A stretch of 64,000 nucleotides of DNA from Escherichia coli (lineage in GTDB: Bacteria; Pseudomonadota; Gammaproteobacteria; Enterobacterales; Enterobacteriaceae): assembly GCF_003334815.1 (NCBI RefSeq), contig NZ_QOWO01000012.1; one strand, given 5' to 3'. A program made the translations under genes and the position numbers. The notes beneath the pieces were generated by a model. The model made no database searches. It was not told where the DNA came from and saw only the letters and a program-made list of their open reading frames with translations. Positions 1 to 62,961 of this stretch are shown in pieces. Numbering within the stretch: the first letter of the stretch is position 1; each line of letters begins with the position of its first letter.

Positions 1-62
1 TTTTTCGTCTTGCGACGTTAAGAATCCGTATCTTCGAGTGCCCACACAGATTGTCTGATAAA

Positions 63-75
63 TTGTTAAAGAGCA
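63..75 (-). promoter_or_regulatory. boxA antitermination element of rRNA operon leader
   Basis: Minus-strand sequence TGCTCTTTAACAA matches the rrn leader boxA consensus; lies downstream of the P1/P2 promoters on the minus strand. Confidence 0.7.
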
Positions 76-112
76 GTGCCGCTTCGCTTTTTCTCAGCGG
101 CGCGGGGTGTGC

Positions 113-140
113 ATAATACGCTTTCCCGCTACAGAGTCAA
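113..140 (-). promoter_or_regulatory. rrnB P2 promoter
   Basis: Minus strand reads TTGACT, 16-nt spacer, TATTAT; matches recalled rrnB P2 sequence. Confidence 0.7.
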
Positions 141-231
141 GCATTTATTTTTGCTTTCTCTGCCGGAGTTCTCAGGAGAACCCCGCTGACCCGGCGGCGT
201 GTTTGCCGTTGTTCCGTGTCAGTGGTGGCGC

Positions 232-285
232 ATTATAGGGAGTTATTCCGGCCTGACAAGAGGAAATTTAAAATAATTTTCTGAC
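232..285 (-). promoter_or_regulatory. rrnB P1 promoter with A/T-rich UP element
   Basis: Minus strand reads TTGTCA, 16-nt spacer, TATAAT, then GCGC discriminator; an A/T-rich UP element (260..285) lies immediately upstream; matches recalled rrnB P1. Confidence 0.8.
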
Positions 286-304
286 CGCGCAACATTCAAC
301 CAAA

Positions 305-1162
305 TCAGCCTAAAACTGCCAGTTTTTCGAGCGTTTCGAAGCCGTAACGCTGTAAAACGGGCAATAATTGTTCAGCTCCTGGCGTCATTGCCATACAAAA
401 GGCAATATTCGCATCGGCAGATTTTGCATCCGGGGCTTCATGTTCTAACAACCAGGCCGTTCGGCGAGCAATCGCTGCGCCAGAATCCACCAGCCGGGTT
501 CCCTCTGGCAGCACTTGTAACAGTTCTTCTTGTAGTAGAGGGAAATGGGTGCAACCCAATACAACGGTATCTGGCGGCTCTTTCATTCTTAACCACGGGC
601 GTAGGATACGTTTTAGTGCATCCAGAGAAACATCTTCGCCATGTAGCTTCGCTTCAGCCAACTCAACCATCTCTGCCGAGCCCAGCATTTCTATCTGGCA
701 TTCATTAGCGAAACGCGCGATCAGCTCATGAGTATAAGAACGTTTAACTGTTCCGCGGGTTGCCAGTAATCCGACAATGCCATTTGCCGTCAGACGTGCA
801 GCAGGTTTAATCGCCGGCACGACACCAACAACCGGGAAGTCGAACTTTTCGCGTAATGCAGGAAGTGAAACGGTACTGGCAGTGTTGCAAGCGACCACAG
901 CCAGCGCAAGGGGATAACGTTCTTGCACCGCGGTGACAATTGCCACCACTCGCTCAACAATAAACGCTTCGCTTTTTTCGCCATACGGGAAAGCGACGTT
1001 ATCGAAAGCATAAATGTAATGGAGATCCGGTAAGAGATGCCGGATCTCGTCATAGACCGACAACCCACCGACGCCGGAGTCAAACACCAGCACGGTGGGA
1101 CGTGGTTCAGAAGGTGTAGCTGCCAGACAAGGTGTATTCCCGTCCTGCAGTTTGGTAGCCAT
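305..1162 (-). CDS. murI: Glutamate racemase
   Basis: ORF 305..1174; translation is glutamate racemase (VFDSGVGG and GCTHFP motifs); start trimmed to the MATKLQ methionine; 5' end lies inside the btuB 3' end. Confidence 0.95.
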
Positions 1163-2951
1163 AGACTGTCTCATAATCTTTGTCGAACAGGTTGGCTATT
1201 TTACCACGAACTGTCAGGTGAGAGGTGACCGGATACGCAACCGCAAGATCCCACAAGCTCACACCGCCCATTTTAACGGTTTGATAAGGATAAGATGAGT
1301 AATCCTTATCATAGCGAGTGCCTAAATACTGATAAGTAATACCCCAGTCGAAGTCATACAACTGCCAGTCGAGCTGGTATTTCACCTGCTGTTTAGCACG
1401 GCGTAACAACGGCGTGTCGGTAATCGCATTGCGCGCATCGACATAATCATAACTCACAGTATGCGTCAGTGGTCCGGTATCAAAATTGGCGGTCGCCTCG
1501 ACGCCCTTAATCCGCGCTTTCCCTTCGTTGTAATATTTCAGGGTGTGATCATCATAATCGATCAAGTCACTGACATCGTTACGATATCCGGAAATACGCC
1601 AGTTCACCCCAGCGGTTAAGCCTTCAAACGCGCCTTCCCACTGTTTGCTTTTCTCCGGGTCCAGATTCGGATTTCCGTAGAAGCCATACAGTTGCCCCAG
1701 ATTTGGTGCCTTATAAGATGTCCCGTAGGAAGCAATGAAGCGATAACCTTCGATGAATTCCCAACCGGCGCTGGTTTGCCAGGTTCCATGACGACCAAAC
1801 TGTGAGTTATCGTCACTGCGTGCTGCGCCTTCAAAGGTAAAATCGCCGACTTGTTGCAGCCCGGTCAGATAGATGCCGGTATTACGTTGATCATATCCAT
1901 CCTCAACATAACCTGTACCCGGCGTCGTAGTCTGTTTCTGCCAGTCGACACCCGCACCAATACTACCGTGACCAACGATGACATTGTTTGCCCACTGGAC
2001 GGTGTATTGCTTCATCTCATCGAGCGTCGCCGACGAATCATAACGACCATAATGGGGATCGTAGTTGTAATCTTTGCTATGGCTATAGCTGGTAATGAGT
2101 TGTGATTTAATCAGTTCGCCGTTATAGCGCAGCCCGGCGTCCCAACTTTGGCTATAGAGTTTACGGGTATCGAGCAACGGTGAACCGGGAGAATAATACG
2201 CGTCATAATTGGTACGGTTATCATAGCCATAGCCGCGCACAAAGCCGCTCCAGGCATCAGTAAAGTTATGCTCCAGCGCGCCATAAAGCGTTTTACTTAA
2301 AAAACCATCGTTATCTGTCTGCGCTTGCGTTCCGGTATTACCATAGGCAACAACATCATAACCATGAGTATGGGCATAATCGCCCAACAGCGTTACCCGT
2401 GTCTTATCCCCCAGTTGTTGCTGCGTAGAGACATCATAGTTCTGATAACTATTGCTTCCCCACCCTGCTGAAATTTCCGTTCCGGGTTCATCGCGCGTCG
2501 TGATGATATTCACCACCCCGCCTATTGCATCGGAACCATAAACAGCGGAGCGCGGCCCACGGATATATTCAACACGCTGGACAAGCGCAATAGGGAACTG
2601 GCTAAGGTCGGCAGAACCACTCACCCCCGCCAGATTCAGGCGTACGCCATCAATTAACACCAACACATGACTGGCATTTGTACCGCGAATAAAAATAGAT
2701 GAGAGCTGACCTGAACCGCCGTTTTGGGTGATATCGACGCCCGGAAGACGGCGCAGCACATCATTGACCGAGGTCGACTGCCAGCGGTCGATATCCTGAC
2801 GGGTCACAACGGTGGTTGGTGCAAGCACAGTGCTGCGCGGCTGTTCAAAACGGTTAGCAGTAACGACGAGAGTATCCGGGCTGGTATCCTGTGCCCAAGC
2901 GGAAAATGCCGTGACGGAACACGCCGTCAGCAGCGAAGCTTTTTTAATCAT
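1107..2951 (-). CDS. btuB: TonB-dependent vitamin B12 outer-membrane receptor
   Basis: ORF 1107..2996; signal peptide [20 protein letters not shown], TonB box DTLVVTA, C-terminal aromatic residue; start trimmed to MIKK. Confidence 0.95.
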
Positions 2952-3191
2952 TGTAAAGCATCCACAATAGAAGAAGGATGCCGCAGGTTTCATCAATATT
3001 ACGCGATGATGAGAACCAGATGCGACGTTGGCCGGCAGGTCTTCGGGCTTGGAGGGGTATCTAAGATACTAAGAGATGATGACTTCCCACCGAATGGCAG
3101 TGTCCGCATAACGCAATCATCGCACCTTTCCTTACCGCTGCGCGTCAGCTCCAGATTCGCACTGGATTCCCTATTAACTCACAGGACCGGC
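2952..3191 (-). ncRNA. Adenosylcobalamin riboswitch (btuB 5' leader)
   Basis: About 240-nt leader upstream of btuB on the minus strand matching the recalled btuB leader (GCCGGTCCTGTGAGTTAATAGGGAATCCAGTGCGAATCTGGAGCTGACGCG...); element continues into the first btuB codons. Confidence 0.85.
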
Positions 3192-3319
3192 AAGTGGATG
3201 CTACAGGTTGTAACAAGTTACTGTCCAGACGTAGCTCACAAATAGGAATTCATCAAGATCTGGACATCTGATGAGCAATCCCTACAATCGCCGCGTACTT
3301 TAATTTTTCAGGATACATC

Positions 3320-5799: not shown

Positions 5800-7200
5800 A
5801 TGCCACATTCCTACGATTACGATGCCATAGTAATAGGTTCCGGCCCCGGCGGCGAAGGCGCTGCAATGGGCCTGGTTAAGCAAGGTGCGCGCGTCGCAGT
5901 TATCGAGCGTTATCAAAATGTTGGCGGCGGTTGCACCCACTGGGGCACCATCCCGTCGAAAGCTCTCCGTCACGCCGTCAGCCGCATTATAGAATTCAAT
6001 CAAAACCCACTTTACAGCGACCATTCCCGACTGCTCCGCTCTTCTTTTGCCGATATCCTTAACCATGCCGATAACGTGATTAATCAACAAACGCGCATGC
6101 GTCAGGGATTTTACGAACGTAATCACTGTGAAATATTGCAGGGAAACGCTCGCTTTGTTGACGAGCATACGTTGGCGCTGGATTGCCCGGACGGCAGCGT
6201 TGAAACACTAACCGCTGAAAAATTTGTTATTGCCTGCGGCTCTCGTCCATATCATCCAACAGATGTTGATTTCACCCATCCACGCATTTACGACAGCGAC
6301 TCAATTCTCAGCATGCACCACGAACCGCGCCATGTACTTATCTATGGTGCTGGAGTGATCGGCTGTGAATATGCGTCGATCTTCCGCGGTATGGATGTAA
6401 AAGTGGATCTGATCAACACCCGCGATCGCCTGCTGGCATTTCTCGATCAAGAGATGTCAGATTCTCTCTCCTATCACTTCTGGAACAGTGGCGTAGTGAT
6501 TCGTCACAACGAAGAGTACGAGAAGATCGAAGGCTGTGACGATGGTGTGATCATGCATCTGAAGTCGGGTAAAAAACTGAAAGCTGACTGCCTGCTCTAT
6601 GCCAACGGTCGCACCGGTAATACCGATTCGCTGGCGTTACAGAACATTGGGCTAGAAACTGACAGCCGCGGACAGCTGAAGGTCAACAGCATGTATCAGA
6701 CCGCACAGCCACACGTTTACGCGGTGGGCGACGTGATTGGTTATCCGAGCCTGGCGTCGGCGGCCTATGACCAGGGGCGCATTGCCGCGCAGGCGCTGGT
6801 AAAAGGCGAAGCCACCGCACATCTGATTGAAGATATCCCTACCGGTATTTACACCATCCCGGAAATCAGCTCTGTGGGCAAAACCGAACAGCAGCTGACC
6901 GCAATGAAAGTGCCATATGAAGTGGGCCGCGCCCAGTTTAAACATCTGGCACGCGCACAAATCGTCGGCATGAACGTGGGCACGCTGAAAATTTTGTTCC
7001 ATCGGGAAACAAAAGAGATTCTGGGTATTCACTGCTTTGGCGAGCGCGCTGCCGAAATTATTCATATCGGTCAGGCGATTATGGAACAGAAAGGTGGCGG
7101 CAACACTATTGAGTACTTCGTCAACACCACCTTTAACTACCCGACGATGGCGGAAGCCTATCGGGTAGCTGCGTTAAACGGTTTAAACCGCCTGTTTTAA
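5800..7200 (+). CDS. sthA: Soluble pyridine nucleotide transhydrogenase
   Basis: 466-aa ORF; FAD-binding GSGPGG motif and flavoprotein disulfide reductase family architecture. Confidence 0.95.
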
Positions 7201-8100
7201 AACTTTATCGAAATGGCCATCCATTCTTGCGCGGATGGCCTCTGCCAGCTGCTCATAGCGGCTGCGCAGCGGTGAGCCAGGACGATAAACCAGGCCAATA
7301 GTGCGGCGTGGTTCCGGCTTAATGCACGGCAGATAAACAACCCCATCGCGTTTGCGCTCCGGCGGCACAGCCAGCGCTGGCAGTAAAGTGATCCCGCTAC
7401 CTGCCGCCACCATGTTGCGCAGAGTTTCCAGGCTGGTCGCGCGGAAGTGTGTATCTTCATCCGCCCCGGCTTCAAAACAGAAACCCATTGCCTGATCGCG
7501 CAAACAGTGACCATCTTCCAGCATCAGCAGTTTTTCCCCTGCCAGATCGGCCATCGGTACGCATTCGCGGTTCGCCCACGGGTGATCTTCATAGATAGCC
7601 AGCAACATTGGCTCATCAAACAACGGCACTTCAATGAATGCTTCGCTCTCTTTCACCAGCGCGAGGATCACGCAATCGAGTTTGCCGCTGTCCAGTTGCG
7701 CCAGTAACTGGTGGGTCTGTGCTTCATGCAGATACATTTCCAGCTTTGGAAAGGTCTGGTGCAGCATAGGGATAATATGCGGTAGCAGGTACGGTCCAAC
7801 TGTGGGAATCAAACCAATGTGCAGCGGTCCGGACATCGTCTCGCCCTGCTGGCTTGCCATCTCTTTAAGGACTTTCACCTCACGCAGCACGGTACGCGCC
7901 TGATCCACCAGCAGCATTCCCGCCTGGGTGAACAACACTTTACGGCTGGTCCGCTCCAGCAACATCACGCCCAGCTCATCTTCCAGCTTACGAATTTGCC
8001 CGCTAAGCGTCGGCTGGCTAACGTGGCAGGAATCTGCCGCACGCCGAAAATGGCGGTGTTCAGCCAATGCCACCAGGTACTCAAGATCACGAATATTCAT
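7183..8100 (-). CDS. oxyR: LysR-family hydrogen peroxide-sensing regulator
   Basis: ORF 7183..8130; start trimmed to [18 protein letters not shown]; contains redox cysteines in the [12 protein letters not shown] region; 3' end overlaps sthA convergently. Confidence 0.95.
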
Positions 8101-8195: not shown

Positions 8196-8304
8196 GAAAC
8201 GGAGCGGCACCTCTTTTAACCCTTGAAGTCACTGCCCGTTTCGAGAGTTTCTCAACTCGAATAACTAAAGCCAACGTGAACTTTTGCGGATCTCCAGGAT
8301 CCGC
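8196..8304 (+). ncRNA. oxyS: OxyS small regulatory RNA
   Basis: Sequence GAAACGGAGCGGCACCTCTTTTAACCCTTGAAGTCACTGCCCGTTTCGAGAGTTTCTCAACTCGAATAACTAAAGCCAACGTGAACTTTTGCGGATCTCCAGGATCCGC matches recalled OxyS; divergent from oxyR; ends in a hairpin plus T8. Confidence 0.9.
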
Positions 8305-8312
8305 TTTTTTTT
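8286..8312 (+). terminator. Intrinsic terminator of oxyS
   Basis: Stem GCGGATC/GATCCGC followed by TTTTTTTT. Confidence 0.8.
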
Positions 8313-28569: not shown

Positions 28570-28580
28570 AACGCAAAATT

Positions 28581-28679
28581 GCCTGATGCGCTACGCTTAT
28601 CAGGCCTACGCAATCTCTGCAATATATTGAATTTGCGTGCTTTTGTAGGCCGGATAAGGCGTTCACTCCGCATCCGGCA
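28581..28679. repeat. BIME (inverted REP pair)
   Basis: GCCTGATGCGCTACGCTTATCAGGCCTAC ... GTAGGCCGGATAAGGCGTTCACTCCGCATCCGGCA; near-identical to the copy after metJ. Confidence 0.85.
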
Positions 28680-57798: not shown

Positions 57799-57897
57799 GC
57801 CGGATGCGGCGCGAACGCCTTATCCGGCCTACAAAAGTTTGCAAATTCAATAAATTGCAGAATTCATGTAGGCCTGATAAGCGAAGCGCATCAGGCA
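57799..57897. repeat. BIME (inverted REP pair)
   Basis: GCCGGATGCGGCGCGAACGCCTTATCCGGCCTACA ... GTAGGCCTGATAAGCGAAGCGCATCAGGCA. Confidence 0.85.
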
Positions 57898-62865: not shown

Positions 62866-62880
62866 ACTTCGCATTTGCAG

Positions 62881-62961
62881 GCAGGATAAGGCGTTTACGC
62901 CGCATCCGGCATTTGAGCAGGATGCCTGATGCGACGCTGATAGCGTCTTATCAGGCCTACA
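62881..62961. repeat. BIME (inverted REP pair)
   Basis: GCAGGATAAGGCGTTTACGCCGCATCCGGCA ... GCCTGATGCGACGCTGATAGCGTCTTATCAGGCCTACA. Confidence 0.85.

Follow-up and report, generated by a model that had tools for sequence, protein, structure and literature searches.

A 64-kb stretch of Escherichia coli DNA almost certainly opens in the control region of the ribosomal RNA operon rrnB

The first 304 nucleotides of the Escherichia coli DNA analysed here (a stretch of 64,000 nucleotides, called the window throughout) raise the question whether the window begins inside the promoters and leader of a ribosomal RNA operon, which of the operons this would be, and whether the rRNA genes follow beyond the left edge. 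Among bacterial promoters rrnB P1 has probably been studied most intensively, and it serves as the model for UP elements, for activation by FIS and for control by ppGpp/DksA and by the initiating nucleotide. Its UP element is the contact site for the C-terminal domains of the RNA polymerase alpha subunits. The rrn leader is the model for ribosomal antitermination, with boxA, bound by NusB/NusE, as the nucleation site of the antitermination complex. The original prediction had read the left end of the window as rrnB promoter and leader on the minus strand, running out of the window, and this was borne out by sequence identity and genome context. With a probability of about 0.97, judged from the sequence, positions 1 to about 373 (minus strand) represent the complete rrnB control region together with the first 223 nt of the P1 transcript (rrsB-gltT-rrlB-rrfB), cut 70 nt before the 16S gene. 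We found no evidence contradicting this reading.

Both promoters were recovered where they had been predicted, P1 with its UP element at 232..285 and P2 at 113..140, and the following elements could be assigned:

254..259, minus strand: -35 hexamer TTGTCA of rrnB P1 (consensus scan and match to published DNA)
232..237, minus strand: -10 hexamer TATAAT of rrnB P1 (consensus scan and match to published DNA)
263..283, minus strand: P1 UP element CAGAAAATTATTTTAAATTTC, -60 to -40 (exact match to published rrnBP1; definition from PMC7822876)
224..231, minus strand: GC-rich discriminator GCGCCACC, -8 to -1 (definition from PMC7822876 and sequence match)
223, minus strand: predicted P1 start, +1 A (statement in PMC7822876 and exact sequence match)
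113..140, minus strand: rrnB P2 core with -35 TTGACT at 135-140, a 16-bp spacer and -10 TATTAT at 113-118 (consensus scan)

The sigma-70 consensus scan found 4 promoter sites in 1..1500, where 1.4 were expected from shuffles; on the minus strand P1 has a spacer of 16 bp and matches 11 of the 12 consensus positions, while P2, recovered over the very span predicted, matches 10 of 12. The start of P2 would probably be a C near 105. A cryo-EM study gives the sequence of the non-template strand of its rrnBP1 DNA (PMC7822876), and the 71 native nt of this strand (-60 to +11) are identical, with no mismatch and 0 matches expected, to 283..213 on the minus strand. In the same work the UP element extends from -60 to -40 and the discriminator from -8 to -1, and P1 transcription starts at an A, 9 bp past the -10 element (PMC7822876). 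The AT-rich stretch that a P1 promoter of the rrn type requires is thus present at 263-283, both hexamers are in place, and GCGCCACC directly precedes the A at 223, which at the sequence level is the predicted start site. A transcript from this start would carry a leader of 292 nt ahead of mature 16S rRNA. Measured between the -10 hexamers, P1 and P2 lie 119 bp apart, the tandem spacing expected of rrn operons, in which the two promoters are about 120 bp apart (PMC4696680).

Upstream of P1, the original prediction had placed the FIS region over the last codons of murI. FIS sites I to III of rrnB P1 are centred at -71, -102 and -143, and the FIS consensus has five critical positions, GnnnRnnWnnYnnnC (PMC2885671). 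With +1 at 223 these centres fall on 294, 325 and 366, and candidate sites were found on each of them:

287..301, minus strand: predicted FIS site I, GGTTGAATGTTGCGC, centre -71 (5 of 5 critical and 10 of 11 consensus positions)
318..332, minus strand: predicted FIS site II, GCTCGAAAAACTGGC, centre -102 (5 of 5 critical and 10 of 11 consensus positions)
359..373, minus strand: predicted FIS site III, GAACAATTATTGCCC, centre -143 (5 of 5 critical and all 11 specified consensus positions)
305..1162, minus strand: murI (glutamate racemase), the upstream neighbour, with its stop codon TGA at 305-307 (open reading frame and annotation in an identical genome and in K-12)

No 15-mer between -200 and -61 other than these three agrees with the consensus at every one of the five critical positions, and each of the three coincides exactly with a published centre; across the window such matches occur at a background rate of 0.009 per position. 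As had been stated, murI runs from 305 onward, its reading frame ending at the TGA 307..305. The predicted overlap with murI holds for sites II and III, which lie within the last 23 codons of the gene, but not for site I, which is intergenic and occupies the gap that separates the stop codon of murI from the UP element. At its other end murI (annotated ATG at 1162) overlaps btuB (stop at 1107-1109) by 56 nt, 1107..1162 on the minus strand, as it does in K-12. No terminator-like site was predicted in 1..1500, the stretch from the murI stop to rrnB P1 included, so that transcripts of btuB-murI may read into the rrnB control region.

Downstream of P2 the leader can be numbered backwards from the 16S gene, leader position -n corresponding to window position n - 69. 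On this scale the following elements were located, of which only boxA had been part of the original prediction:

78..101, minus strand: boxB-like hairpin (GCCGCU...AGCGGC) between P2 and boxA (centroid fold, position and literature)
63..75, minus strand: boxA, TGCTCTTTAACAA, leader -144 to -132 (sequence search)
41..50, minus strand: boxC, TCTGTGTGGG, leader -119 to -110 (sequence; boxC from PMC10250234)
19..66, minus strand: leader strand of the 16S leader-trailer helix, which carries the RNase III site (computed duplex with trailer nt 1547-1594)
6..17, minus strand: hairpin hA (CGUC-GCAA-GACG), leader -86 to -75 (sequence; position of hA from PMC10250234)

The boxA sequence TGCTCTTTAACAA was found just where it had been expected, and it has a single match in the 64 kb even when one mismatch is allowed (0.05 expected by chance). 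Its T72 would be the U at -141, consistent with the published numbering of boxA (PMC10250234). According to the same study boxC is UCUGUGUGGG, and the elements follow P2 in the order boxB-boxA-boxC (PMC10250234), which is the order in which they stand here just after P2, with the reservation that the fold of boxB is weak. Its hairpin is the centroid structure, yet the fold by itself is not significant (z = -1.45 against shuffled sequence), and boxB is therefore called from its position and the literature. The boxC region overlaps the site cut by RNase III, and within the leader-trailer helix it is the pairing of leader -113 to -89 with trailer 1548-1570 that is critical (PMC10250234). An RNase III-dependent 5' end would be expected near 46, at -115 relative to mature 16S. 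With the trailer taken from an identical genome (L001), a duplex of leader 66..19 with trailer nt 1547-1594 was computed at -58 kcal/mol (z = -9; shuffled-trailer control with a mean of -22.7 and an SD of 3.9), and it coincides with this critical helix region. Helix hB and the start of 16S are already outside the window. The elements new to this analysis are accordingly boxB, boxC, the leader-trailer strand and hairpin hA.

The promoters and leader by themselves leave the choice between three operons. We aligned 1..420 (minus strand) to the 490 nt that precede each of the seven 16S genes of K-12 and obtained the following matches for the three relevant operons:

K-12 rrnB: 290/291 over 1..291 (differing at 122) and 129/129 over 292..420
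K-12 rrnA: 290/291 over 1..291 and 31/129 over 292..420
K-12 rrnC: 290/291 over 1..291 and 45/129 over 292..420

The alignment to annotated rrn promoters that had been proposed as a check thus gives 290/291 over 1..291 for each of them. From -68 of P1 through the leader, rrnA and rrnC are one base apart each from the window, just as rrnB is, and the base at 122 in the P2 spacer is that of K-12 rrnC and not that of K-12 rrnB. Upstream of -68 rrnA and rrnC are different, with unrelated sequence and other flanking genes (hemG for rrnA, yieP for rrnC). Past 291 the window follows the murI flank of rrnB without a mismatch, against 31/129 and 45/129 for rrnA and rrnC and at most 49/129 for any of the six other K-12 operons. 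It is thus the murI flank, from 292 on, that justifies the name rrnB, since promoters and leader do not separate it from rrnA and rrnC. The window moreover continues through murI, btuB, trmA and further genes in the order found in K-12, with 99.97% identity; a recombinant would carry hemG or yieP at the right, which is not so in the source. The context specific to rrnB, with murI and btuB upstream and, in identical genomes, a tRNA-Glu spacer and murB downstream, is complete. We consequently hold it to be extremely unlikely that these are the promoters and leader of another operon, rrnA or rrnC.

Compared with K-12 rrnB (NC_000913 4166286-4166658), the window shares element order, spacing, sequence and murI flank, with 419 of 420 positions identical in 1..420. 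The sole difference from MG1655 rrnB is position 122 within the P2 spacer, which on the minus strand is A here and G in MG1655. Among the K-12 operons the base is A in rrnC, D, E and H and G in rrnA, B and G, a pattern that is compatible with exchange between operons or with simple polymorphism. More specific proposals, namely that the G-to-A change is a trace of rrn gene conversion that slightly alters the strength of P2 and, separately, that the leader fragment matched by the Rfam family Ysr197 (see below) is a stable functional RNA, appear improbable to us.

With rrnB as the preferred reading, the rRNA genes are expected beyond the left edge, as had been claimed. Positions 1..304 are 100% identical to the rrnB locus in many E. 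coli genomes, and 1..1200 has a match in all 5426 complete E. coli genomes, with 100% identity in many. In HS30-1, one of the genomes without a mismatch over 1..1200, window position 1 corresponds to locus position 7200 and the 16S gene starts at 7270, which is 70 nt to the left; past 16S the gene order is tRNA-Glu, 23S, 5S and murB. The 16S gene lies 70 nt past the window edge in K-12 as well, where the murI-rrsB gap has the same 373 nt and the genes are annotated rrsB, gltT, rrlB and rrfB. The sequence left of position 1 would accordingly read TGAATACCAAGTCTCAAGAGTGAACACG and onward to a 16S gene that begins 70 nt outside the window. A left flank lacking a 16S gene within about 300 bp, which had been named as the observation that would speak against the original prediction, is not what identical and near-identical genomes have.

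This left flank is known from other genomes and not from the source itself, so that the source could in principle be a strain in which rrnB has been deleted or rearranged and a remnant of promoter and leader is left without rRNA genes following it. In 25 of the 5426 complete genomes, a query of 1001 nt spanning the junction of murI, promoters and 16S is nowhere covered to 80% or more at one place. In the other 5401 this junction is contiguous, the query being covered at one place to at least 80%, a level above that of a paralogous operon (at most about 74%) or of a locus without 16S (about 62%). The genomes identical over 1..1200 are, among the matches listed, all normal seven-copy strains, and in HS30-1, the single identical locus inspected, the 16S gene stands at its normal place. 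An orphan promoter without rRNA genes in the source is thus very unlikely. A different kind of alternative comes from Rfam, where family RF02849 (Ysr197, Yersinia sRNA 197) matches 53..306 on the minus strand over the full 254-nt model with E = 1e-19, as a free-standing small RNA gene might. At 81 bits the match falls far short of the gathering score of the family (167). Although the family is labelled a small RNA, its consensus takes in boxA, P2 in its entirety and the -10 hexamer of P1, and it reaches upstream of the P1 start. This consensus content implies that Ysr197 looks like the Yersinia rrn promoter and leader and that the match reflects conservation of this region. Searches of 1..304 against Rfam gave no match at gathering thresholds and, at a permissive threshold, nothing beyond this sub-threshold hit. 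Given its score and the promoter and leader content of its consensus, Ysr197 was rejected as a separate small RNA gene, a reading to which we attach next to no probability. Also rejected was a plus-strand open reading frame of 43 aa (107..238, GTG start) antisense to P1-P2, which is without annotation in K-12 and HS30-1 and very likely spurious.

As a whole the window is collinear with K-12 from 4166589 down to 4102467, in reverse orientation, at 99.97% identity. Around 12895..13121 it is 123 bp shorter than MG1655 in the ppc-argE intergenic repeats (K-12 4153346-4153693), a length difference that reflects the copy number of a repeat of about 100-120 bp; outside this repeat only 9 bases differ from MG1655 over the 64 kb. 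The 9 bases and the repeat difference suggest that the source is very closely related to K-12 without being MG1655 itself. Several other elements were noted along the window, namely a cobalamin riboswitch in the btuB leader (3017..3206, minus strand, 87 bits), the OxyS small RNA adjoining oxyR (8196..8305, plus strand, 139.5 bits) and, above the Rfam gathering threshold, a ribosomal-protein leader of L31 (rpmE; 39461..39513, minus strand) and a ClpQY (hslVU) promoter element (44125..44182, plus strand). A repeat of about 103 nt is present in two dispersed copies, 88% alike, at 28577..28679 and 38415..38516, and Rfam matches to ES036/CssrF and naRNA4/CssrE were obtained at 38440..38481 (minus strand), 57834..57875 (plus strand) and 62880..62957 (plus strand). 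These repeats and matches are probably REP-type intergenic repeat elements.

The elements of the rrnB control region are presumably active in the source strain. Following established work, three FIS dimers would bind at -143, -102 and -71, and the AT-rich UP element would recruit sigma-70 RNA polymerase to P1 via the alpha C-terminal domains. The 16-bp spacer, the GC-rich discriminator of 8 bp and the start 9 bp from the -10 element would make the P1 open complex short-lived; discriminator and unusual start distance are known to destabilise this complex and to render it sensitive to ATP and ppGpp/DksA (PMC7822876, PMC4696680). The short-lived complex would respond to ATP concentration and to ppGpp/DksA and would thereby place P1 under growth-rate and stringent control. 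Basal transcription would come from P2, which lies 119 bp downstream of P1 and for which this role has been described (PMC4696680). In the nascent leader, boxA would bind NusB/NusE (S10), which together with NusA, NusG, S4 and SuhB would form the Rho-resistant rrn antitermination complex with the polymerase. The boxC region would then pair with the trailer that follows 16S and form the leader-trailer helix, which would be needed for 30S assembly and be cut by RNase III; the helix of the boxC region has been found essential for 30S biogenesis (PMC10250234). The phage lambda nut sites resemble this system in that NusB/NusE bind a boxA RNA and make the polymerase resistant to termination (PMC10250234, PMC2800207). 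The rrn system differs from them in the order boxB-boxA-boxC, in working without N protein and with S4 and SuhB instead, and in its boxC, which unlike that of lambda nut is also part of the 16S processing helix.

The rrnB control region described here is textbook biology that is already known, and it is no discovery. Its value is that it anchors the window on the K-12 map and places the left edge within the rrnB leader, 70 nt before the 16S gene.
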